DNA of 18,128 nucleotides from a virus, in the IMG/VR virus record IMGVR_UViG_3300045988_000846, positions 1-18,128 of that record. One strand, written 5' to 3'. Position 1 is the first letter of the stretch. Every line of letters starts with the position of its first letter. Made by a program: the position numbers and the translations under genes. This document shows positions 2,517 to 16,411 of this stretch, piece by piece. The notes below the pieces were generated by a model. That model made no database searches. It worked only from the letters and a program-made list of their open reading frames with translations, and had not been told where the DNA came from.

Positions 2517-3461
2517 GTGGCAAAACGCAAAAACCGCCGACGCGCTGACATTCTGAAACGCAACGCCGCAATCAGGTCGGCACAGGTACGCCGAGACCGG
2601 GCAGTCGGGGATTACAGTACCGGACGCCTCCCCAAGCGAATCACCGAAACGTTTTTAGGAAATCTCAGTGCCCAACAGCTTGAGCAGGTGGCACGACGTA
2701 TCGGGCAGGAATTCGGAGAACAACAGCAAGCCTTGAGGGCGCGGGATAATGAGCCGTATCAGGTTGTCCCAGATGTTCATATTACGAAACTTGATCGTGA
2801 GATGGCCGCGCGTCCGCTGATAACTGATGCGGAAATCGCCGCCGCCCCGTCGAAACGTCGGAAAACATTGCGGCAGCAGCAGCGCCGCAGAGTTGAGGCA
2901 CGGCAGAAGATTAAGCGTGCCCAACAATTCGAGGCGCTGAGTATGGCCCGCTATACCGTGGGTGAAATGCGTGAAATGGAACGCGCGGGGGAATCTCCGT
3001 TCGACGTGTTAGGCACTCACACGGTCGGCGGTTCGGCACGTGACGAACTCATGCGAAGCCGTGCGAACGTGTTCAGTACAGAGCGTGGAATAAGCCATGC
3101 TCGTACGATGATGCGAGAAGGGAGCCGTAGGAAACTTGAGCGAGAAATGCTTGAATACGCCGGACTTATTGGACGTGCGCCATTACGCGCGGGAACTAGG
3201 CGTATCCCCGAGAACGAGGGTGTTTCTGATTTCGATAAGGTCGCGCAGCAACTTGAAGCATTCGATTTTAGTGTTGCTCAAAGATTCGCCGCCTTGTCGA
3301 ACCGTCAAAAACGATGGCTGATAAACAACACGAATTTCAGCACCGTAGTACGCGAGGCAACATGGTATAATGATAAGGCACACAAATGGGAGACTAAAGC
3401 AGACGCGGGAGATGTAGAGGCACGACTTGATGAATGGATGACCAGCGCAGCAAGACACTAA
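2517..3461 (+). CDS. Putative terminal protein (protein primer), ~314 aa
   Basis: It lies immediately upstream of, and overlaps, the polymerase ORF, the conserved TP-pol arrangement of phi29-type phages. The N-terminus is strongly basic (VAKRKNRRRADILKRNAAIRSAQVRR). The rest is Arg/Glu-rich and looks helical. I chose start GTG 2517 after AGGGGGA; the ORF is open from ATG 2415, so the start is uncertain. Sequence similarity to phi29 TP is not evident by eye beyond the basic N-terminus. Confidence 0.55.
   Translation: MAKRKNRRRADILKRNAAIRSAQVRRDRAVGDYSTGRLPKRITETFLGNLSAQQLEQVARRIGQEFGEQQQALRARDNEPYQVVPDVHITKLDREMAARPLITDAEIAAAPSKRRKTLRQQQRRRVEARQKIKRAQQFEALSMARYTVGEMREMERAGESPFDVLGTHTVGGSARDELMRSRANVFSTERGISHARTMMREGSRRKLEREMLEYAGLIGRAPLRAGTRRIPENEGVSDFDKVAQQLEAFDFSVAQRFAALSNRQKRWLINNTNFSTVVREATWYNDKAHKWETKADAGDVEARLDEWMTSAARH
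3363..3371 (+). promoter_or_regulatory. Consensus extended -10 (TGgTATAAT) inside the 3' part of the TP gene
   Basis: A perfect TGnTATAAT at 3363-3371, ~105 nt upstream of polymerase ATG 3476. It could be an internal promoter for the polymerase or a chance match. Confidence 0.25.
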
Positions 3462-5122: not shown

Positions 5123-5467
5123 ATGGACGACATCGAAAACGACGACAGGCCGGACACCACGCCCGACACTGAACCGGACGTGGCCGCTGACGACAATACG
5201 CCGACCCCGGAACCTGAAACGCAGGACGATAACGAACCCGAGGACGCGGGCGACGACAAGAACGCCGACATGGCCGATCGGCTGAGCGCGTTGGAGGCGA
5301 CCGTGGCGGAATTGTCCAAAACCGTTGAGGCGATGCGCGACGCCGCCGCCGACCACGTGCTGAACGATGGCCCCGACGACAATGCAACGCCGGAATCGGA
5401 CGATGAAATGACCGACGACGACTACAACGGCACCTACAGCACGTTCGACGACCTATACGAAGACTGA
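5123..5467 (+). CDS. Putative scaffolding protein (phi29 gp7 position), 114 aa, extremely acidic
   Basis: ATG 5123 follows AAGAGG; the ORF is open from GTG 5117. It has Asp/Glu/Pro/Thr-rich flanks around a helical core (ADRLSALEATVAELSKTVEAMRDAAAD). It lies directly upstream of the major capsid gene. Confidence 0.7.
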   Translation: MDDIENDDRPDTTPDTEPDVAADDNTPTPEPETQDDNEPEDAGDDKNADMADRLSALEATVAELSKTVEAMRDAAADHVLNDGPDDNATPESDDEMTDDDYNGTYSTFDDLYED

Positions 5468-5489: not shown

Positions 5490-7220
5490 ATGGCAACCAC
5501 TCCCGTGGTGACGCCGAAGCAGCAGCTTCGACCGCTCACCGAGTTCAACAACGCTCAGATTCTCAACATGATTCGCAACGAGGCGTCGCCGGAGTATCAG
5601 CGGCGAATGCCCTCGGCCACTCAGATGAACATGGATAGGCAGATGGCTACGCTTATGTCGTCCACCCAGCTTAAGAACGAGTTTTATTCGGCGTTGGTGA
5701 ACCGCATCGGCGGCACCTACGTGAACACGTGGCGTTGGAACAATCCTCTTGGCGTTTTCCAGCGCGCATCGCAGGCGTATGGCGATACGTGGCAGGAAAT
5801 CGCCGTTGGAATGCCTCTTGCGCAGGTCTACGACCCTAATGCGGAATATCTCGGCGCGGATAATTTCCGCAAGTGGAAAATCGACGTGGATTCACTCTAT
5901 CACCGTCTTGACTTCGCTCACTGGTATCCGGCGACCACGGATGACAAGACGTTGCAGCGTGCCTTCACTTCCGAAAACGGTTTGGCCTCGCTCACTTCCC
6001 AGATTCTCACATCCTGCTACAATGCGGCTGAGGTTGACTTGTTCGAGGCCATGTGCCACCAGTTCGTCGAATACGCGAAGCTCGGCGGATATTGGCGCGT
6101 CCATATGGATAACGATCTGAACAACATGGGCAGTTCGGAAACGGACGCCCGCGATATGCTGCGTCAGATTCGCGCATGGGCCGACACGCTTAAATTCGTC
6201 AGCACCAAGTACAACGCCCGTCACATGCCGACCTTCGCCCGTCCGGATGAACTTGTGCTGTTCTGTTCCCCGGAAGTCAAGTCGGCGCTTGACGTGCAGG
6301 GCCTCGCCACGGTATTCCAGCGTACGGACGCGGAGCCGACAATCGACCGGATTATCGTCATTCCGCAGGACAGGTTCGGCATGGATGGCGTGCAGGCCAT
6401 TTTGACTACCGACAAGTTCCTGATTGACATTCCCGTCATCAACGAGATGACCCAGCAGACAAATCCGGTGAACATCAATTCAGTCAACCATTACCTGCAT
6501 GTCCAGCACATCATCTCAGTGTCCGGCTTCGCCCCGGCTGTGATGTTTTGGACGGGCGCCGGTTCCACTGCGAACGTGGTGGCTCCCACCGGCACGCAGG
6601 CTCAGGCGCCGACGTTCCAGCTCAAGCTCGCCATGTATGGCGGCGGCACGACCACGCCGGAGAATGTGGCGCGTGGTGGCGCGGTGCAGGTCACTGCCGA
6701 TACGACCATCGGAAATGACGGTACCGCCACGTTCCGCTCGGATGCGGTTGAGTATCGTATCGGAGACACCGCCAAGCCGAAGAGCGATTACACGTATATC
6801 TCGCCCACCGGCGTGCTCGTGGTCGGCCTTGACGAACCGAACACCACTATCCCGGTGACGGCGACCGCCTTGTACACGAATCCGGCGACGCCGGAAGTGC
6901 CGGGAACCGTGTCCGCGGCTCTGGACGTGCCAGTGGTCGGTGACGGTGTCATCGGATTCAACCCGTCCATCGTCGCGTCCATTGCCGTGACCGTACCGAA
7001 CGTGACCGTAGGACATACGGCGCAGGCCACCGCCGTGGCGACCATGATTGACGGTCGTACCGCCGACGTGACGGCACAGGCGGCATGGACGTCCGGCACT
7101 CCGGCGAACGCCACCGTGTCCGAGTCGGGCGTGGTGACCGGTGTCAAGGCGGGCGGATCTGATATCACCGCCACACTGTTCGGCGTGTCCGGTAAGAAGA
7201 GCGTGACCGTGACGGCGTGA
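5490..7220 (+). CDS. Major capsid protein with C-terminal Ig-like (Big_2-type) domain(s), 576 aa
   Basis: ATG 5490 lies 9 nt after GAAAGGA; ATG 5481 is an alternative. It occupies the position after the scaffold gene, as in phi29 gene 8. The C-terminus TAQATAVATMIDGRTADVTAQAAWTSGTPANATVSESGVVTGVKAGGSDITATLFGVSGKKSVTVTA matches the bacterial Ig-like group 2 pattern. phi29 gp8 also carries a BIG2 domain. Confidence 0.85.
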   Translation: MATTPVVTPKQQLRPLTEFNNAQILNMIRNEASPEYQRRMPSATQMNMDRQMATLMSSTQLKNEFYSALVNRIGGTYVNTWRWNNPLGVFQRASQAYGDTWQEIAVGMPLAQVYDPNAEYLGADNFRKWKIDVDSLYHRLDFAHWYPATTDDKTLQRAFTSENGLASLTSQILTSCYNAAEVDLFEAMCHQFVEYAKLGGYWRVHMDNDLNNMGSSETDARDMLRQIRAWADTLKFVSTKYNARHMPTFARPDELVLFCSPEVKSALDVQGLATVFQRTDAEPTIDRIIVIPQDRFGMDGVQAILTTDKFLIDIPVINEMTQQTNPVNINSVNHYLHVQHIISVSGFAPAVMFWTGAGSTANVVAPTGTQAQAPTFQLKLAMYGGGTTTPENVARGGAVQVTADTTIGNDGTATFRSDAVEYRIGDTAKPKSDYTYISPTGVLVVGLDEPNTTIPVTATALYTNPATPEVPGTVSAALDVPVVGDGVIGFNPSIVASIAVTVPNVTVGHTAQATAVATMIDGRTADVTAQAAWTSGTPANATVSESGVVTGVKAGGSDITATLFGVSGKKSVTVTA

Positions 7221-7228
7221 TATAATGG
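7217..7228 (+). promoter_or_regulatory. GTGATATAATGG box (consensus extended -10) overlapping the capsid stop codon
   Basis: TGaTATAAT at 7218-7226, with the capsid TGA at 7218-7220. The identical 12-mer recurs at 9635-9646. Confidence 0.4.
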
Positions 7229-7232
7229 GAGG

Positions 7233-7313
7233 GTAGCCGGTTGGCTACTCTCTCTCACGGTGTGATGCAGGACAAGGCCCGGAGCGTTATCCACGTGATT
7301 GCTCCGGGCCTTG
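7233..7313 (+). terminator. Two hairpins after the capsid gene (partial terminator/attenuator or 5' leader structure)
   Basis: Hairpin 1 pairs GTAGCC (7233-7238) with GGCTAC (7243-7248), has loop GGTT and is followed by TCTCTCTC. Hairpin 2 is a perfect 13-bp stem pairing CAAGGCCCGGAGC (7273-7285) with GCTCCGGGCCTTG (7301-7313), with a 15-nt loop. There is no clean U tract. Confidence 0.45.
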
Positions 7314-7331
7314 CCATACCGGAGGATAATA

Positions 7332-9638
7332 ATGATCGACGACGCTAACCCTTACGTGGAATCTAATTTTTCTTGGGCGGAATGGACGCCAAACACGACG
7401 TTGAAACTCTGCCGCGTGCCATGGGATGCTTCATACCGTGATATCGTGCGGTTTGTTTCACGTGAAACACAGCGGGAATGGTTCGACGAACTGGACGGCG
7501 TGGAATGCCGTCCGGCCACCATGCATGTTTTCGGCGCCCCCGTTCGTATCGACATGCCATTTAACCAAGCGTCAAACTATAATTACCTTGTCGCCGTCAA
7601 TGATTACCCCGAACTGGAATCGCCACGCGCTTGGTATTATTTCATCGAATCCGTGGAATACATTAACGCGCACGCCACACAACTCACGCTTATGCTGGAC
7701 GTATGGCAAAGTTTCCAGTTTGACGTGAGTTTTGGCAGTTGCTATGTGACGCGCGGCCATATCGGCATCGCCAATGAACGCCAATGGGACGATTACGGGC
7801 GTACCACGCTTGCACTGCCGGAGGGACTGGACACCGGCGCGGAAACCGTCGTTACCTCACAGTCATATACGACGCTTATATCCAGCAAGCCCGCGCAGCC
7901 CGGGTTTAACTCACCAACCTTGGATTATGGTGTCATTGTCGTGGCTACAACCGATCTTGCGGTGTCGGGCGGTAGTACTGAAAAACCGTCGTTGAAAACC
8001 GCGCAAGGCTCACAATTCGAGAATCAATCCAATGGCGCGGGGATTTATTATTTTGACACCGCCGACGATTTCACGCGCGTTATGCAGGCGGGAAGTTCGT
8101 ACCCGTGGGTCACTCAGGGCATTACGGCGATCTACGCCATTCCCAAAATCAGCGCCGACTATATAGCCGACGCCGGTAGAGAGGTAACGCAATTTTTTGG
8201 CAACGACGTGGCCGGCGTGGTTAAAGGGCATGTGTATACGTTTATGTGGGAGGCTAGAAGCGATAACAGGTATGACGATATTGTCTCTATCAAGAATTTT
8301 CGCAATAACTTCAATATCCCCAAACGGTATCATAATCTGAAAAAACTACAGTGCTATCCGTATAGCGTCGTGGAATGTTCGTGCCTGAATGGCTCGAATG
8401 TCATCTATCGACCCGAAGATATCCAGTCCAATGACTTGGTTATCCGCGAAACGTGGAATTACGCGCCGCCGTCTCCGCGTTTGAACTTTTACCCGGTGAA
8501 CTACAATACGTCAGGCGCGCGCGCCGTTTCCTCCCCGTCCGGGAACGGTACCGGGCTGCCGATCGATGGCGGGGAAATGCTTAACGTCAGTTTCGGTATC
8601 ACGAACTTCCCTCAGTTCATGGTGGTGAATAACGGGGCCTCGCTTGCTATGGCGAACAGCGCATACGCTCGCGCATATGCGGAGCAGTCGGCCGGATGGG
8701 CGCAGCAGAAAGCGACCATGAGCGCGGCAAACGCATTATCTCAGGCCGGTACGGCGATTCGCACCCAGCAGGAGATGACCCAACTGGGTATCACCAACCG
8801 TAACGCGCTGAATGCCATCGCGGCCAACTCGCTTAACCAGTCGTTGGCTATCGGGCAGGCGAACACCAACGCCATGACCGACCTGAACGTATCACAAAAC
8901 AACGCGCGAACCGCGTGGGGGCTGATTTCCAATGCGGGTAGCGCATTGGCGTCAGGGAGCGTGGCCGGACTGATTGGCGGCGCCGTCGGCGCCGTCGGCG
9001 GCATCGTGCAGAACGACATCACCAACAAGGGACTGTACGCGAGTCGTGACATCGCCAACGATACGGCAGCTGCAAACACCGCCAACAGTGTGGCGACCAA
9101 CGCGGCGCAAACATCGCAGGCGAACACTTACGCGCAACGCGCACAGCAGATTCAGGGCGCGTCCAGCGCTCTGATGGCCGGGCAGAACTATCGGTTGGCC
9201 ACGCGCTTTGCCGAAGGGGATTATGAGAACTCCATAGCTGGGATCAACGCTCAAGTCCAGCAAATGCAGATGACCCCGCCGACTACGAGCGGTTCGGCGG
9301 GCGGCGACTCGTTCAACCTCGCTAACGGTATTATGGGCGTGTTGGTCCGTTTCCGCACGTGCGCCCCCAGCGCGTTGCGTTCGGTTGGCGAATTCATGTT
9401 GCGTTTCGGGTATTTTGTCCAGCGTTTCGTCACCCCGCCCGCAAGTTTGCAATGTATGGAGAAATTCACGTACTGGCAGATGCAGGAATGCTATATTAAA
9501 GGTACGCTTCCCGAACAGGCGCGGCTAACCATTAAGGGCATGTTCGAGCGTGGTGTGACGGTTTGGAGCAAGCCCGAGTATATCGGCGTGACCGACTGGG
9601 CGGACAATGATCCACTTCCGGGCATTGGCTACGAGTGA
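7332..9638 (+). CDS. Tail knob / distal tail tube protein (phi29 gp9-like), 768 aa
   Basis: ATG 7332 follows GGAGGA; the upstream part of the ORF lies in the hairpin. The N-terminal match is YNYLVAVNDYPELESPRAWYYFIESVEYINAHATQLTLMLDVWQSFQFDVSF against phi29 gp9 [49 protein letters not shown]. The C-terminal match is FMLRFGYFVQRF...FTYWQMQECYIKGTLPEQARLTIKGMFERGVTVW against FFHKYGYKINRV...[34 protein letters not shown]. Confidence 0.88.
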   Translation: MIDDANPYVESNFSWAEWTPNTTLKLCRVPWDASYRDIVRFVSRETQREWFDELDGVECRPATMHVFGAPVRIDMPFNQASNYNYLVAVNDYPELESPRAWYYFIESVEYINAHATQLTLMLDVWQSFQFDVSFGSCYVTRGHIGIANERQWDDYGRTTLALPEGLDTGAETVVTSQSYTTLISSKPAQPGFNSPTLDYGVIVVATTDLAVSGGSTEKPSLKTAQGSQFENQSNGAGIYYFDTADDFTRVMQAGSSYPWVTQGITAIYAIPKISADYIADAGREVTQFFGNDVAGVVKGHVYTFMWEARSDNRYDDIVSIKNFRNNFNIPKRYHNLKKLQCYPYSVVECSCLNGSNVIYRPEDIQSNDLVIRETWNYAPPSPRLNFYPVNYNTSGARAVSSPSGNGTGLPIDGGEMLNVSFGITNFPQFMVVNNGASLAMANSAYARAYAEQSAGWAQQKATMSAANALSQAGTAIRTQQEMTQLGITNRNALNAIAANSLNQSLAIGQANTNAMTDLNVSQNNARTAWGLISNAGSALASGSVAGLIGGAVGAVGGIVQNDITNKGLYASRDIANDTAAANTANSVATNAAQTSQANTYAQRAQQIQGASSALMAGQNYRLATRFAEGDYENSIAGINAQVQQMQMTPPTTSGSAGGDSFNLANGIMGVLVRFRTCAPSALRSVGEFMLRFGYFVQRFVTPPASLQCMEKFTYWQMQECYIKGTLPEQARLTIKGMFERGVTVWSKPEYIGVTDWADNDPLPGIGYE

Positions 9639-9646
9639 TATAATGG
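9635..9646 (+). promoter_or_regulatory. GTGATATAATGG box (consensus extended -10) overlapping the tail-knob stop codon, 6 nt before the portal ATG
   Basis: TGaTATAAT at 9636-9644, with the knob TGA at 9636-9638. The hexamer ends at 9644 and the portal ATG begins at 9651. There is no SD in between, which is consistent with a leaderless transcript. Confidence 0.5.
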
Positions 9647-9650
9647 CAGT

Positions 9651-10601
9651 ATGAGCAGGTCTAAAAAGAATCGAGTCGGCGGCGCGTTGCACCCGCGCGG
9701 CAATTACGCGAAAACACGCGCCGTCACGCTTGATGACATGTATCTTCATTTGCTGATGGAACTCGCGTTGAACCGTTTCAGTTGGCGCGGATTGCCGCCC
9801 ACTGTGGACGAACGTTGGCTGGAAATATGTCTGTGCGAATACGGTTGCGCGCTGTTTTTCGAAGACAAACGTATCGGCAGGTTCCTTGTGACTCAGGCGG
9901 GCTATCAGGGCAGACTGAACGTGTACAATAATCCGACATGCTTCGAGCCGGTAGGCGTCAACTACCATTACAGGCAACTCAAGGCCGGTTCGGAATGCAT
10001 CCCCATTTGGGACAATCGAATGCGCGTCGGATTCAAACCGACATTATGGCAGTACGCGCGACGCCTTGCCGATATCGACAAAGCGTACGATGTGAACTTG
10101 GAGAGTCTTAAACTGCCGACCATCATAACCGCCGACCCCCGCACCAAGCTCACCGTGCAGAACATGCTTCAGCAACGGCAGGACGGTCAGGACTATATCA
10201 TAGGATACGATTCGCTTGACCCCGGCAGTATGTTCCAGCCGTGGCCGAACACCACGCCCTATCTGCTGGATAAGTTTATTCAGCAGAAAGCACAGGTGAC
10301 TAACGAAGTGTTGGGGTATCTCGGCATTCAATCGTCCGGCACGGAAAAAAAGGAACGGCTGATCTCCGACGAAGTTGCGCAGGCCAATGAGAAAACAGAC
10401 GTGTTCCGCTTGAGTTTCCTCAAGGCGCGGCAGGCTGCGGCGACCGAGATTAACCGATTATGGCCGCAACTGAACGTGTGGGTGGAATACGCGGACGCGC
10501 AAAGCTCCGGCGTGCCGAACGCGCTTGATTCAAGCGCAAGCGGTACGACGGATATTGACATGCCAGCATCATACGACGCGGATATCGGAGGTGTATTGTA
10601 A
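9651..10601 (+). CDS. Portal / upper collar connector protein (phi29 gp10-like), 316 aa
   Basis: LALNRFSWRGLPPTV matches phi29 gp10 LAYQLFEWENLPPTI. YLGIQSSGTEKKERLISDEV matches [20 protein letters not shown]. The N-terminus is basic (MSRSKKNRVGGALHPRGNYAKTR), like the pRNA-binding N-terminus of gp10. Confidence 0.93.
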   Translation: MSRSKKNRVGGALHPRGNYAKTRAVTLDDMYLHLLMELALNRFSWRGLPPTVDERWLEICLCEYGCALFFEDKRIGRFLVTQAGYQGRLNVYNNPTCFEPVGVNYHYRQLKAGSECIPIWDNRMRVGFKPTLWQYARRLADIDKAYDVNLESLKLPTIITADPRTKLTVQNMLQQRQDGQDYIIGYDSLDPGSMFQPWPNTTPYLLDKFIQQKAQVTNEVLGYLGIQSSGTEKKERLISDEVAQANEKTDVFRLSFLKARQAAATEINRLWPQLNVWVEYADAQSSGVPNALDSSASGTTDIDMPASYDADIGGVL

Positions 10602-11395
10602 TGGCACAGGATTTTAGCGCCTACGCGATGACGACGCCGGGGGAGTACACCGAAACCCTCGGTAATCTTATCGCATTCGGCTATGATACCGACGACAAAC
10701 TGCATCTTAGCGCCGATTATTACCCGATTTACGACGAATCTCATCGCGCGGAATTAAATGAGAAGATTATCCGCCATTACGCGCTTAGGGAGATAGGACA
10801 GGAAACCGCGCAGCAGTTCGTTTTCTATCTGGGTATGACAATGGCGGAGATCATGCCCTATTTCAACGAACGCTATCGGACACTGGACATGGAATATGAT
10901 CCGCTGGACTCCATGGACATGACAACGGACAGTGAGAGCGACAGCGAATCCCAGTCGTCTGGTAGGGCATCCAGTACGCAGGACTCTAACAGCAGCAGTA
11001 CCAGCAAGTCGGATAATTCCAGCACCACCACGTCAAAGAGTTTCGACAGTGACGTGCCGCAGACCGGCGTCGTGGGCGACTTCGCACGCTACGCGAGCCA
11101 CGCGAACGAGTCGCAGGCGAACAGCTCCGGCACGGCATCCAGTTCTCAGGATTCAACCAGCCACACCACCGCACAAAGCGCAACCGACTACCAGCATGAT
11201 TCAAACAATTCCAAGGGCAAGAGCCATGTGACCGGGCGCAGCCAAAGCGCCATGAGCCTGATACAGGAATACCGGAACGCCATCATCAACGTGGACATGG
11301 AAATCGTACGGAGCCTTGAGCCGTGTTTCATGCAGGTGTGGGGTTCGTATGATACAATATTCAGCAACTGCCATAACTATGGAGAATGGGAGTGA
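10601..11395 (+). CDS. Lower collar protein (phi29 gp11 position), 264 aa
   Basis: The ATG overlaps the portal stop (TAATG) and follows GGAGGTG. Position and size are as in phi29 gene 11. The N-terminal pattern YPIYDESHRAELNEKIIRHYALREIGQETAQQFVFYLGMTMAEIMPYFNERY is typical of lower collar proteins as I remember them. The central part is Ser/Thr-rich. Confidence 0.7.
   Translation: MAQDFSAYAMTTPGEYTETLGNLIAFGYDTDDKLHLSADYYPIYDESHRAELNEKIIRHYALREIGQETAQQFVFYLGMTMAEIMPYFNERYRTLDMEYDPLDSMDMTTDSESDSESQSSGRASSTQDSNSSSTSKSDNSSTTTSKSFDSDVPQTGVVGDFARYASHANESQANSSGTASSSQDSTSHTTAQSATDYQHDSNNSKGKSHVTGRSQSAMSLIQEYRNAIINVDMEIVRSLEPCFMQVWGSYDTIFSNCHNYGEWE
11350..11358 (+). promoter_or_regulatory. Extended -10-like TGaTACAAT inside the 3' end of the collar gene
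   Basis: TG-a-TACAAT at 11350-11358, ~40 nt before ATG 11398. It may drive the fibre module or be a chance match. Confidence 0.25.
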
Positions 11396-11397
11396 CA

Positions 11398-12033
11398 ATG
11401 AGTGCCGTTAATGCACTGGTACCACGGGAACGATTGTTTGACGGAATACCTACATCCGTTCCGTTCACGTATCGGGACGGATTGACCACGTTGCAGTTGA
11501 TTGAATGTCTACGCCATAATCTCGATACCCTCCAATGTGATTTGAGCAGGTTGGAGGGGGTCACTACTGACCTAGCGGTATCCGTGGACAAAACCCTTGC
11601 GGACACCGTGGCGCAGGTCAACAAGTCGATGGACGATTTGCGGGCGGAAATGCTGGCCCTGATTCATGAGATGGAACAACAGGGCGCGGCCACCTCCCCC
11701 GTGTATGGCACCACGCAACCGCTCGGGGATGTGCTTGGCGGCATGTACGATAATGCGCGCAATCACGGATTGTTCTGGGGTGATTATGACGACATGCTGT
11801 TGACCGCGCAGGAATACGACGGGCTTGGACTCGGCGCACGTGAGTACGATCTGAGGGCCACCGCCGTGGATAATTGCGTCCCCGGTGATTTTCCGGGCCG
11901 CCCCCAATTCCCCTACGGGAAATCCATGCCGGAGAACCCCGTGGCGGACATGGCGTTTATCACGCAGTCCGAGGCGGACGCACGCTATGTCGAACGTAAT
12001 CCAACCGCAGACAATTTCGATAGGAAGGAATAA
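11398..12033 (+). CDS. Putative tail/collar-associated structural protein (211 aa), function unknown
   Basis: ATG 11398 follows GGGAG; the ORF is open from 11386. It lies between the collar and fibre genes. It has a predicted coiled segment (LSRLEGVTTDLAVSVDKTLADTVAQVNKSMDDLRAEMLALIHEME). I recognise no family. Confidence 0.6.
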   Translation: MSAVNALVPRERLFDGIPTSVPFTYRDGLTTLQLIECLRHNLDTLQCDLSRLEGVTTDLAVSVDKTLADTVAQVNKSMDDLRAEMLALIHEMEQQGAATSPVYGTTQPLGDVLGGMYDNARNHGLFWGDYDDMLLTAQEYDGLGLGAREYDLRATAVDNCVPGDFPGRPQFPYGKSMPENPVADMAFITQSEADARYVERNPTADNFDRKE

Positions 12034-13921: not shown

Positions 13922-13950
13922 GTGTTTTCGCTTGAAAATCTAATCCATAC

Positions 13951-13974
13951 CCCCGCTCGGTACGCCGGGTGGGG
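13951..13974 (+). terminator. GC-rich hairpin after the fibre gene (10-bp stem, UACG loop)
   Basis: CCCCGCTCGG (13951-13960) pairs with CCGGGTGGGG (13965-13974), giving 8 Watson-Crick and 2 G-U pairs with loop TACG. It is immediately followed by TATACTATTATC. Confidence 0.45.
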
Positions 13975-13980
13975 TATACT
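13975..13980 (+). promoter_or_regulatory. -10-like TATACT 6 nt upstream of the SD-less tail-lysin ATG
   Basis: TATACT at 13975-13980 and ATG at 13987. No SD lies within 12 nt. The spacing is the same as at the portal gene. Confidence 0.35.
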
Positions 13981-13986
13981 ATTATC

Positions 13987-15252
13987 ATGGACAATACGGC
14001 ACTATACGCGATGTATGTTATCGGCACGGTGGAAAGCAATTGCGATTGGGGCGCATGCAATTATGTGGACGCCATCACTATGGGCATTATGCAATGGTAT
14101 GGCAGTCGCGCCCGCGATCTATTGGAACGAGGGCGCACCGCCGACCCGGACGGGTGGAACACGTTCGCCGCGGCGGCTCCCACATTGGCGCAGCAGGTGC
14201 AGGCTAATGACATCAACTGGACGGCACGCTACCTATCCACCGCGGAGGGTAATGCGTGGAAAACGTGGGCACAGCGGGACGAAAACCATGCTTTCCAAGA
14301 GGCGCAATGGGAGGCGGATTGGAACGGATACCAATTCACTATGACCAATTTCGGTTTTCCCGAAGGGAATGTGAAAGAGCGTATCATGTGGGCGTGCGCT
14401 TATCATCAATCCCCCGCGCAGGCGCAGCGTGTGCTTGCATCATGCTCGGCAACCGCCACGCTGGAATTGATTTACACTACGATTTTGGCGGACGGCGTGC
14501 TGGGCCAGTACCGTAATCGGTATACGACCGCGTATAATCTACTGAAATCGTGGGACGGCACGAACGCGCCTCCTGATTTTGGTCAGACTTCCGAACCGTC
14601 CGACACGCCGGGAGGCGACCAGTCCGGCATCGACGGGAAACCCGCGAGTACCGCGTGGATCCAATTGCAGGGTGATAACCTTATCTACCACAGCGGGGAC
14701 AGTACCGCCATTTTTGTAAAAGGCGTCGCACAGACATGGGTATACAAGACTTCCGAATCAACCAAGCCGGGCGGCGGTCAGACTGGCGGCGGTTCCAGTT
14801 CCGGCAACAGCAGCGAGGATGCGGCGCGAGTCGTGGAATGGCTGCGGTCACGCATCGGCAGATACGCATACTCGCAGGGCGCGGGGCGATTAGATCCCGA
14901 TTCGAGTGGGTACGGCGATTGCTCCAGTGTATGCTGGCGAGCGTATCAGGACGTGCTGGGCATCGACGTGGGCACATGGACAGGCCAGATGGCAAGCAAG
15001 GGCACCCGCGTCTGTGGCAGCTCCGACACATCGGTGTCGGATGCTATCGCCAAGGCGCAAGCAGCCGACCTGCTATTGCTGGACTGGGGCGCGTATACTC
15101 AGGCATGGGACCATGTGGAAATGTTCACCGGAGATTCCAAGGACGAAACATTATCGCACGGGGGGCCGGGCAATGGGCCGAATCTGTTCGCCGCGTCGGG
15201 TGAAATGAGCATGGCGAGCAGGTGGGAGATACGCCGGTACATCACCGATTAG
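13987..15252 (+). CDS. Tail-associated peptidoglycan hydrolase (phi29 gp13 position): N-terminal lysozyme-like domain + C-terminal NlpC/P60-type cysteine peptidase, 421 aa
   Basis: The N-terminus YVIGTVESNCDWGACNYVDAITMGIMQWYG has a Glu-containing, lysozyme-like pattern. A Gly/Ser linker follows (PGGGQTGGGSSSGNSS). The C-terminus has GYGDCSSVCWRAY (nucleophile Cys) and WDHVEMFTG (His), as in NlpC/P60/CHAP-like enzymes. The ORF is open from GTG 13969, so the start is uncertain. Confidence 0.8.
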   Translation: MDNTALYAMYVIGTVESNCDWGACNYVDAITMGIMQWYGSRARDLLERGRTADPDGWNTFAAAAPTLAQQVQANDINWTARYLSTAEGNAWKTWAQRDENHAFQEAQWEADWNGYQFTMTNFGFPEGNVKERIMWACAYHQSPAQAQRVLASCSATATLELIYTTILADGVLGQYRNRYTTAYNLLKSWDGTNAPPDFGQTSEPSDTPGGDQSGIDGKPASTAWIQLQGDNLIYHSGDSTAIFVKGVAQTWVYKTSESTKPGGGQTGGGSSSGNSSEDAARVVEWLRSRIGRYAYSQGAGRLDPDSSGYGDCSSVCWRAYQDVLGIDVGTWTGQMASKGTRVCGSSDTSVSDAIAKAQAADLLLLDWGAYTQAWDHVEMFTGDSKDETLSHGGPGNGPNLFAASGEMSMASRWEIRRYITD

Positions 15253-15262
15253 CGCAACGGTA

Positions 15263-15284
15263 AACCGGTAGATATCTACCGGTT
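15263..15284 (+). terminator. Perfect 22-bp palindrome AACCGGTAGAT/ATCTACCGGTT (hairpin or operator)
   Basis: It lies 11 nt after the tail-lysin stop. It can form a 9-bp stem with an AUAU loop. No U tract follows. A promoter-like element lies 14 nt downstream. Confidence 0.4.
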
Positions 15285-15297
15285 CATCCATACCTTA

Positions 15298-15306
15298 TGG
15301 TATCAT
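15298..15306 (+). promoter_or_regulatory. Extended -10-like TGgTATCAT upstream of the ATPase gene
   Basis: TG-g-TATCAT at 15298-15306. The second in-frame ATG (15314) lies 7 nt after the hexamer. Neither ATG 15305 nor ATG 15314 has a convincing SD. Confidence 0.35.
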
Positions 15307-16411
15307 GGATAGTATGGAGAAGCTGTTAAGCGAGGGCGATTACTACGGTTATGGGCGCGTGCTGTCCTATCACGCGCCTTGGATGTTCGTCATCGGCGCG
15401 CGCGGCCTCGGCAAGACCTATGGTGCTAAAAAACTGGTCATAGGCGACTGGATTAAAAAACGCTGGCAATTCATCTACCTACGCCGAACGGCAGAGGAAC
15501 AGAAAAACAAAGGGACTTGGTTTGCGGACATTGCAGAGCAATACCCGGAATTAGAGTTTAGGATATCCGGCAATCAAGCCGAATGTCACTGGCTGGATGA
15601 CAGGGACGCCACCGCAGGCAAGCACGGCAAGAAACGCCCAACATGGCACATCATGGGATATTTTATCGCCCTATCACAGGCCGGACAGGTGAAATCGGTT
15701 GCCTACCCCAGAGTACGCACCATTGTCTTCGACGAAATATTCCCCGATAATATGCGATACCTTGGCGGAGAGGTCACGGCGCTTGAGGAATTTTACAACA
15801 CGGTAGACCGCTGGAATGACAGGGTTCGCGTTATCATGTGCAGCAACGCCGTAACGTTGGCTAATCCGTATTTCAGCGCGTTTAATATCAATCTAAAACC
15901 GCAGCTGGATAATCACGTGCAATATCAGCGATATTGCGACGGGTTTATTATGGTGGAATTAGCTGATTACGGCGGATTCAGCGCCAAGGTTGCCACATCC
16001 AAATTCGGACAGTTTCTACGCAGATACGACGAAAATTATGCGAATTATGCAATCAATAACGGTTTCAGGGATAACGCCAATGCTCTCATTAGTGATTTCA
16101 AGGACGCCGGATATGCGTTCACATTAAGAACCACCGAATACGGTATTTTCAACGTATATCAGCAATTAAGCGACACCGACGAAGTGCTATATATAATCAC
16201 AAAAAAACAACCGAAAATCACCCGTAATTTCACGTTCGATTATCGACTTGTAGACAATAATTGCATAATGCTCAAGCGCTCCGACGACATGACGCAAAAA
16301 ATACTGAACGCCTATCGCGTCGGTAGATTACGGTTTGAAACCCCGCAGATTAAAGCGGAGTTTAGCATGATTCTTGGCGGCTTATTACAACAATCAGGCA
16401 TAAGAAAGTGA
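15305..16411 (+). CDS. DNA packaging ATPase (phi29 gp16-like), 368 aa (365 aa if started at ATG 15314)
   Basis: VLSYHAPWMFVIGARGLGKTYGAKK matches phi29 gp16 MLSYDRILNFVIGARGIGKSYAMKV (Walker A). VRTIVFDEIF is Walker B. RVRVIMCSNAVTLANPYFSAFNI matches RVRCICLSNAVSVVNPYFLFFNL. The C-terminal RVGRLRFE matches NGYLRFD. Confidence 0.93.
   Translation: MDSMEKLLSEGDYYGYGRVLSYHAPWMFVIGARGLGKTYGAKKLVIGDWIKKRWQFIYLRRTAEEQKNKGTWFADIAEQYPELEFRISGNQAECHWLDDRDATAGKHGKKRPTWHIMGYFIALSQAGQVKSVAYPRVRTIVFDEIFPDNMRYLGGEVTALEEFYNTVDRWNDRVRVIMCSNAVTLANPYFSAFNINLKPQLDNHVQYQRYCDGFIMVELADYGGFSAKVATSKFGQFLRRYDENYANYAINNGFRDNANALISDFKDAGYAFTLRTTEYGIFNVYQQLSDTDEVLYIITKKQPKITRNFTFDYRLVDNNCIMLKRSDDMTQKILNAYRVGRLRFETPQIKAEFSMILGGLLQQSGIRK

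Follow-up and report, generated by a model that had tools for sequence, protein, structure and literature searches.

Three late genes of an uncultured phi29-like gut phage have putative leaderless starts behind conserved -10 boxes

Introduction

How are late genes of a phi29-like phage expressed when no usable ribosome-binding site precedes them? The question is raised by the IMG/VR virus record IMGVR_UViG_3300045988_000846, a complete record of 18,128 base pairs (bp) with inverted terminal repeats, to which we refer in full as the window. Its portal gene (ATG 9651), the putative tail lysin gene at the gp13 position (ATG 13987) and the gp16-type DNA-packaging ATPase gene (ATG 15314) all lack a Shine-Dalgarno (SD) sequence, and each begins immediately behind a hexamer resembling a -10 promoter element. 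We propose, with a probability of roughly 0.7, that these are three internal host-type promoters without -35 elements, from which transcription would begin at the A of the ATG to give leaderless mRNAs; the transcription start sites (TSSs) are predicted from the DNA sequence.

A -10 box lies 6 or 7 nucleotides upstream of three late genes

The preliminary description of this DNA placed the three SD-less ATGs 6, 6 and 7 nucleotides (nt) after TATAAT, TATACT and TATCAT, respectively. These coordinates are exact, and no usable SD core is present between -20 and -4 of 9651, 13987 or 15314, the sole SD-like trace upstream of the lysin gene being a GGTG about 13 nt before its ATG. The features of the three sites are as follows.

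9636..9644, + strand: extended -10 box TGaTATAAT; its TGA (9636-9638) terminates the tail-knob gene
9645..9650, + strand: portal discriminator ggcagt, 6 nt between TATAAT (9639-9644) and ATG 9651, of fixed length and variable sequence
9651..10601, + strand: portal (upper collar connector) gene, 316 amino acids (PF05352, E=2e-41; phrog_2038), with a putative leaderless start
13975..13980, + strand: -10 box TATACT without a TG extension, followed by 6 nt (attatc) and ATG 13987
13987..15252, + strand: gp13-position gene, a putative tail-associated cell-wall hydrolase of 421 amino acids with a weak NlpC/P60 match
15298..15306, + strand: extended -10 box TGgTATCAT (TATCAT at 15301-15306), followed by 7 nt (ggatagt) and ATG 15314; it overlaps an in-frame ATG at 15305
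15314..16411, + strand: gp16-type DNA-packaging ATPase gene (PF05894, E=4e-43), whose putative leaderless start is the second of two in-frame ATGs

The first T of the TANNNT motif is at -12 for the portal and lysin genes and at -13 for the ATPase gene. These positions agree with a survey of 953 bacterial genomes, in which TANNNT about 12 nt before the start denotes a leaderless gene, and such genes amount to ~19% in Actinobacteria and ~4% in Firmicutes (PMC3160421). All three start codons are ATG, that of the portal gene being the first start codon of its open frame. The portal and ATPase boxes carry the extended -10 motif (TGn, with TG one base before TAnnnT), a feature that the preliminary description did not mention and that frees sigma-70 promoters from the need for a -35 element. 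The lysin box lacks this motif, with GG replacing TG, and a consensus scan gave no match to a -35 element at any of the three sites. The gap between the stop codon of the previous gene and the start is 12 nt for the portal gene, 65 nt for the lysin gene and 61 nt for the ATPase gene, such that none has the arrangement typical of translational coupling, in which the start overlaps the stop or is only a few nt from it, and the portal gene alone comes within a plausible range.

The preliminary description also credited nearly every other gene with a strong SD. This is roughly true once starts are corrected, with SD-led starts at ATG 7332 for the knob gene (behind GGAGG) and at 5123, 11398 and 16420, but the SDs of the polymerase gene (3434), a badly spaced GAGG, and of the endolysin gene (16782) are weak or badly positioned.

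Could AT-rich hexamers fall near three start codons by accident? The total number of TANNNT-N6-ATG sequences in the window is not enriched, with 9 observed and 7.5 expected, and the signal lies in their placement at gene starts rather than in this unremarkable total. TANNNT is present at N6 or N7 before 3 of 20 gene starts, compared with 6 of the 363 other plus-strand ATGs in the window (Fisher p=0.008), and for hexamers matching TATAAT at five or more of the six positions the corresponding counts are 3/20 and 1/363 (p=0.0005). The perfect TGNTATAAT occurs three times in the window, always on the plus strand, with an expectation of 0.45. As described below, the layout is kept in about 80 relatives while non-critical positions vary, and these comparative data disfavour coincidence, which we regard as barely credible.

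We also folded the predicted transcripts. In the minimum-energy folds no pairing involves the initial 13-15 nt of the lysin and ATPase mRNAs; in the predicted portal mRNA only the AU at the 5' end is unpaired, and its 5' region is less structured than in 199 of 200 shuffled sequences.

Conservation of the portal site and of leadered comparators

Relatives were collected as 80 IMG/VR genomes from a search with the portal, most of them from one large IMG/VR dataset and with portal proteins 92-99% identical. In 66 unique relatives, T-15, G-14, T-12, A-11, T-7 and the ATG of the portal gene are conserved without exception, while positions -13, -10, -9, -8 and -6 to -1 vary, the commonest base at these accounting for 53-83% of sequences. 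The resulting hexamers include TATAAT, TACAAT, TATGAT, TATACT, TATGCT, TACACT and TACGAT, and in a subgroup where the knob gene ends with TAG the arrangement is TAG-TGc-TATACT, so that the TG is retained even though it is outside the stop codon. The motif is present in 79 of 80 aligned relatives, and the distance from box to ATG is exactly 6 nt in 79/79. Position -1 of the portal site is always a pyrimidine, a preference conserved in all three sets of sites, and the start codons in relatives are ATG or occasionally GTG (the latter in three unique ATPase sequences). An invariant TG, T-12, A-11 and T-7 accompanied by variable third to fifth hexamer positions and a variable discriminator is the signature of -10 recognition by a sigma-70-type factor.

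Similar boxes are found upstream of genes with SD-bearing leaders, two of which serve as comparators.

7218..7226, + strand: TGaTATAAT in the capsid stop codon, followed by hairpins, a leader of ~105 nt and the SD-led knob gene at 7332
11350..11358, + strand: TGaTACAAT upstream of the SD-led gene at 11398

The box at 7218 is kept in 69 of 70 relatives, and its distance to the knob ATG is 103-108, 54-56 or 145-146 nt; the box at 11350 is kept in 80/80, at a distance varying from 20 to 46 nt. A further box upstream of the SD-led gene at 1959 lies 44-50 nt from it, or 97-98 nt in a few relatives. More generally, intergenic TGnTAnnnT boxes (197, 1904, 2416, 3363, 4929, 7218, 9636, 11350 and 15298), which all point the same way as the genes, persist in 88-100% of aligned relatives, compared with 16-71% for those within coding sequences (6015, 7439, 7632, 9489, 14673 and 17156). 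A promoter accounts for the box in both the leadered and the abutting contexts, and the fixed distance is explained solely by a requirement that position +1 falls on the ATG.

The lysin site and its hairpin

The gap between the GDSL appendage gene and the lysin gene contains one additional feature.

13947..13977, + strand: conserved GC-rich hairpin after the GDSL appendage gene; its 3' arm also takes in the first 3 nt of the -10 box

This intergenic region folds with an energy of -22.1 kcal/mol (z=-3.0), and the hairpin has compensatory pairs among 63 sequences (GC in 31 and AU in 25; CG in 37, UG in 19 and UA in 7). In 63 unique relatives GGGGTAT is invariant, and is followed by A or G, C or A, an invariant T, 6 or 7 nt, and the ATG. 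In 70 of 81 genomes the arrangement GGG-TAnnnT-N6/7-ATG leads into an open frame of 100 codons or more.

Some of this conservation might have a different origin, in that the conserved GGGGTATACTATTATC at this one site could belong to a transcription terminator or RNA-stabilising hairpin as its 3' arm and tail, the likeness to a -10 element being incidental. The TAT of the hexamer does pair with an ATA in the 5' arm, and the stem is stable and covarying. However, the final T of the hexamer is unpaired and yet invariant, the A/C preceding it is more than 90% conserved, and the next 6-7 nt vary, with a tail that is not U-rich. Moreover, one relative without the 5' arm of the hairpin retains GGGGTATACT-N6-ATG, and another class of lysin genes in the relatives has TGcTACAAT-N6-ATG with no hairpin of the type seen in the window. 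We therefore consider a purely structural role for the lysin hexamer to be quite improbable.

The open reading frame (ORF) of the lysin gene had been modelled from GTG 13969, and the preliminary description moved its start to ATG 13987. This correction is well supported by the sequence comparisons, as the GTG is inside the hairpin arm and is GCG in many relatives, and the N-terminus encoded from 13987, MDNTALYAMYVI, aligns with VSNQSMYAMYVI of the cultured Bifidobacterium phage BD811P2, and the N-terminus likewise aligns with that of BadAargau2. Neither PHROGs nor Pfam assigns the lysin to a family at default thresholds, and at relaxed thresholds the sole match, to NlpC/P60 (E=0.0014), falls short of the Pfam cut-off. 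The same cassette is followed by N-termini of four unrelated kinds (MVDVQAWL, MDNTALYA, MAVDFRTW and MPTLDEWF), which suggests that modules may have been exchanged at a fixed regulatory junction. One of these classes in the relatives opens with a CHAP-like motif, MVDVQAWL...GAQCWDLW.

No intrinsic terminator was called on the plus strand at 13947-13977 or at the corresponding hairpin before the ATPase gene (15263-15284), the tails of both not being T-rich; the stems covary, and the canonical U-tract that accompanies a GC-rich stem in an intrinsic terminator is missing. The two hairpins would probably act as insulators. No such hairpin was found between the knob and portal genes, and an Rfam scan of the window returned no family. 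A CCATACC repeat (7315, 13946 and 15288) was considered as an element shared among junctions and was rejected, as the copy at 13946 is an arm of the lysin hairpin and that at 15288 is not conserved in relatives.

The ATPase site

The lysin-ATPase intergenic region also folds with an energy of -22.1 kcal/mol (z=-4.1), and contains the following element.

15263..15284, + strand: perfect hairpin or palindrome with a 9-bp stem, AACCGGTAG-ATAT-CTACCGGTT, after the lysin gene and before the ATPase gene

Compensatory changes are seen at five of the nine predicted pairs (47 sequences). The same element is a perfect 22-nt DNA palindrome, AACCGGTAGATATCTACCGGTT, with stems reaching up to 16 bp in relatives; it might just as well be a DNA operator, bound by a dimeric protein, as an RNA structure.

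Upstream of the ATPase gene, G-15, A-12 and T-8 are invariant in 59 unique relatives, and T-16 and T-1 are conserved in 95% and 97%, respectively. The motif is retained in 42 of 44 aligned relatives, the box-to-ATG distance is 7 nt in 48 ATPase genes, and a subgroup of eight has TGcTATACT-N6-ATG in place of the N7 layout. The 6 nt separating the two in-frame ATGs encode 16 different dipeptides (DI, IY, DT, DS, NI, DV and others), nearly all ending in T at the nucleotide level, and outside this dipeptide the ATPase proteins are 91-98% identical among relatives. The combination of varied dipeptides and a preserved final T suggests that selection bears on the nucleotide sequence and not on the encoded residues. 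The proposal in the preliminary description that translation starts at 15314 in place of 15305 is supported, less firmly than the change at the lysin gene.

Leaderless transcripts or read-through

What is established directly is the sequence layout, its pattern of conservation and the fixed spacing. From these we infer promoter activity, the exact TSSs, leaderless translation and a role for the hairpins, an interpretation favoured by a set of indirect tests: conservation is confined to the bases that define a -10 element and to the ATG, spacing is fixed, position -1 is a pyrimidine, and the predicted 5' ends are unstructured. The proposed arrangement would consist of three internal promoters of the housekeeping-sigma type without -35 elements, two of them with TGn, operating alongside promoters that serve SD-bearing leaders. 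Initiation by RNA polymerase would fall on the A of each start codon, in the portal, gp13-position lysin and packaging ATPase genes, and the resulting mRNAs would have no 5' untranslated region, the 5'-terminal AUG or GUG being bound directly by the ribosome as in the leaderless route of Actinobacteria. The hairpins upstream of the lysin and ATPase genes would end or attenuate transcription from the preceding gene, such that each of these two genes could become its own transcription unit.

Several observations weigh against this proposal. The portal ATG is only 12 nt past the knob stop codon with no intervening hairpin, and reinitiation on a read-through transcript could yield the portal. The portal and ATPase genes of cultured Bifidobacterium phages have SD-bearing leaders, which implies that the leaderless layout is clade-specific. 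The relatives are close, and their sequences are therefore not independent. The lysin box has no TG and is half within a hairpin stem, which by itself would conserve the TAT. At the ATPase gene ~90% of relatives share the earlier in-frame ATG (15305), and it is with this earlier codon that the leaderless-type ATG of one subgroup lines up; resetting this start is accordingly less firm than at the lysin gene, and 15314 is probable but not secure. Finally, the assignment of a Bifidobacterium host is itself drawn from sequence.

The main competing explanation is that the boxes are real promoters or are otherwise functional, but that the proteins are made mainly from polycistronic read-through transcripts, the leaderless geometry being secondary. 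Portal synthesis would then occur by termination and reinitiation across the knob stop codon, and initiation at the lysin and ATPase genes would need no SD, taking place in an unstructured region rich in AU. The genes are all on one strand with short gaps, the sequence immediately before the three ATGs is AT-rich, and the hairpins have no canonical U-tract, so that read-through of them is plausible; the missing hairpin at the knob-portal junction and the leadered genes of the cultured relatives point in the same direction. This explanation is most plausible at the portal. Neither AU-richness nor coupling, however, predicts an invariant T-12, A-11, T-7 and TG among variable neighbours, or spacing that is exact to the nucleotide, and the lysin and ATPase ATGs are well removed from the preceding stop codons and behind stable hairpins. 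In mycobacteria, moreover, an SD is required for leadered initiation, while a 5'-terminal ATG or GTG is both required and enough for leaderless translation (PMC4633059). Overall we judge that predominant expression by read-through is rather unlikely, and prefer initiation at the ATGs themselves.

A broader and more tentative proposal is that a large clade of human-gut Bifidobacterium phi29-like phages might have replaced the single activator-dependent late promoter with a string of extended -10 promoters without -35 elements. Three of these would form a portable cassette, composed of an insulating hairpin, a -10 box and an ATG at +1, that could set the output of the low-copy portal, tail lysin and ATPase and, at the lysin, provide a fixed junction for module exchange.

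Other junctions in the genome

Boxes are also present at junctions where the downstream gene has an SD. At the capsid-knob junction, hairpins at ~7227-7250 and 7277-7311 directly follow the TGaTATAAT at 7218, and precede the GGAGG-led knob ATG at 7332; the ORF start at TTG 7299 is wrong, as shown by the GGAGG-led ATG and by independent gene calls of 768 amino acids. A -10-like box followed immediately by a hairpin is also seen at the knob and portal junctions of phages BP1, BD811P2 and BadAargau2, and transcripts from junctions of this type would start inside the stem.

The terminal-protein gene was considered as a fourth SD-less gene with a start at 2415, and was rejected: the box at 2416-2424 overlaps that ATG, and an AGGAGG-led GTG is located at 2517, which is probably the true start (product VAKRKNRRR...). 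The box itself, TGaTATCAT, is conserved and is followed by a hairpin at 2425-2450. Near the end of the terminal-protein gene, and within it, there is a perfect TGgTATAAT at 3363, 62 nt before the polymerase ATG at 3434 and kept in 64/65 relatives; a three-codon mini-ORF (ATG GGA GAC TAA) lies at 3386, between this box and the polymerase gene. At the polymerase stop codon (4929), the window has TGcTATGAT and 54/66 relatives have TGcTATAAT. The ~185 nt after this box are GC-rich, hold no convincing ORF and gave no Rfam match, and are followed by the SD-led gene at 5123.

Gene content and host

The gene content is of the phi29 type, with the main genes all on the plus strand and a core G+C of ~55%. 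The window encodes a protein-primed type B polymerase (PF03175), a major head protein, a gp9 tail knob, the gp10 connector (PF05352), a lower collar protein, the GDSL-type appendage, the gp13-position protein and the gp16 ATPase (PF05894), and has lysis genes for a holin and an Amidase_2 endolysin. Megablast with the full window as query gave no match to cultured phages, indicating that no near-identical phage is among them, and an exact look-up of the portal protein found two DNA gut-metagenome contigs and nothing else. The nearest cultured phages are the Bifidobacterium phages BP1, BD811P1-3 and BadAztec/BadAargau, with identities of 43-48% for portal and ATPase (47-48% to BP1 and BD811P2), and the genomes inspected (BP1, BD811P2, BadAargau2 and BadAztec1) are syntenic with the window.

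Over its full length (residues 1-260) the endolysin shares 76% identity with a protein encoded in a Bifidobacterium angulatum genome sequence, and it shares 52% with a B. phasiani sequence. The B. angulatum homologue is on contig CAJLKD010000006.1 of a metagenome-assembled genome (locus 19164-25946), and could be a prophage lysin or the product of lysin exchange. We take the window to be the complete genome of a phi29-like phage, most likely with a Bifidobacterium host. The preliminary description had taken leaderless starts as a clue to a host among the Actinobacteria, and this is supported by the cultured relatives, by the endolysin, and by Cappable-seq of the mouse gut microbiome, in which 15% of B. 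pseudolongum TSSs are at annotated start codons compared with 0.4% in Escherichia coli (PMC4782308).

These observations have several consequences. Gene starts that were mis-set by SD-based or longest-ORF models are corrected, to 13987 rather than 13969 for the lysin and probably to 15314 for the ATPase. Expression signals of an actinobacterial type offer a host signal from sequence alone for an uncultured family of gut phages, and this signal agrees with the homology to Bifidobacterium phages and to a Bifidobacterium lysin. Short cassettes of promoter and ATG with putative insulating hairpins could also serve as compact expression parts for Bifidobacterium.

Comparison with known systems

In phi29, late transcription is from a single p4-activated promoter, A3, and genes 7-16 are SD-led (PMC11476376). 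The window resembles phi29 in its gene order (capsid, knob, portal, collar, appendage, gp13-position lysin and gp16 ATPase) and in having late promoters without a good -35 element, but differs in that it has several conserved internal -10 boxes, three of which abut start codons, and in that all of its genes are on one strand. This indicates that late expression in actinobacterial phi29-like phages departs from the phi29 pattern, in which a single late transcript carries SD-led genes.

The preliminary description regarded leaderless starts as new for phi29-type phages. This fits the literature, in that a full-text search for 'leaderless' together with 'phi29' gave no relevant report and a 2024 review of phi29-like phages is silent on leaderless genes. 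The same layout is found sporadically in other actinobacterial phi29-like phages. The BP1 lysin gene (gp5) has TATAAT-N6-ATG, the M23 lysin gene of Curtobacterium phage Transit has a hairpin followed by TGgTATCAT-N6-ATG, the knob gene of Microbacterium phage Curie has TGcTATGGT-N6-ATG, and the terminase gene of Arthrobacter phage Anjali has a -10-N6-ATG layout, all like the window. BP1 and BD811P2, unlike the window, have the portal and ATPase genes behind a hairpin and an SD-bearing leader. BP1, BD811P1-3, Transit, Curie and Anjali each contain only one to three leaderless-type genes, and not the same ones. Across eight actinobacterial phi29-like genomes, TANNNT is present at N6 or N7 in 12/174 annotated starts compared with 103/4,661 other ATG or GTG codons, although ~4 of the 12 in fact resemble SDs (TAGGAT or TAAGGT).

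Phage lambda provides the classical example of a leaderless transcript, the cI mRNA made from PRM, which starts at the A of the AUG. There, the product is regulatory and the E. coli host translates leaderless mRNA inefficiently, whereas the genes described here are structural or packaging genes and the proposed host is in a phylum that translates such mRNAs efficiently.

The closest parallel to the window sites is with the leaderless genes of Actinobacteria (Mycobacterium, Streptomyces and B. pseudolongum), which also have no SD, the first T of the box 12-13 nt upstream, an ATG or GTG start and a pyrimidine at -1, and which belong to the phylum of the proposed host. The window differs from these in that the genes concerned are late structural and packaging genes of a phage, contained in a single late operon in phi29, and in that their TSSs are predicted; and two of the boxes are TGn-extended and close to the TATAAT consensus, where high-GC genomes have a degenerate TAnnnT. 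The mechanism is already established in Actinobacteria, so that the result widens the reach of a known principle and reveals no new one; for this phage group we found no report of it in the literature.

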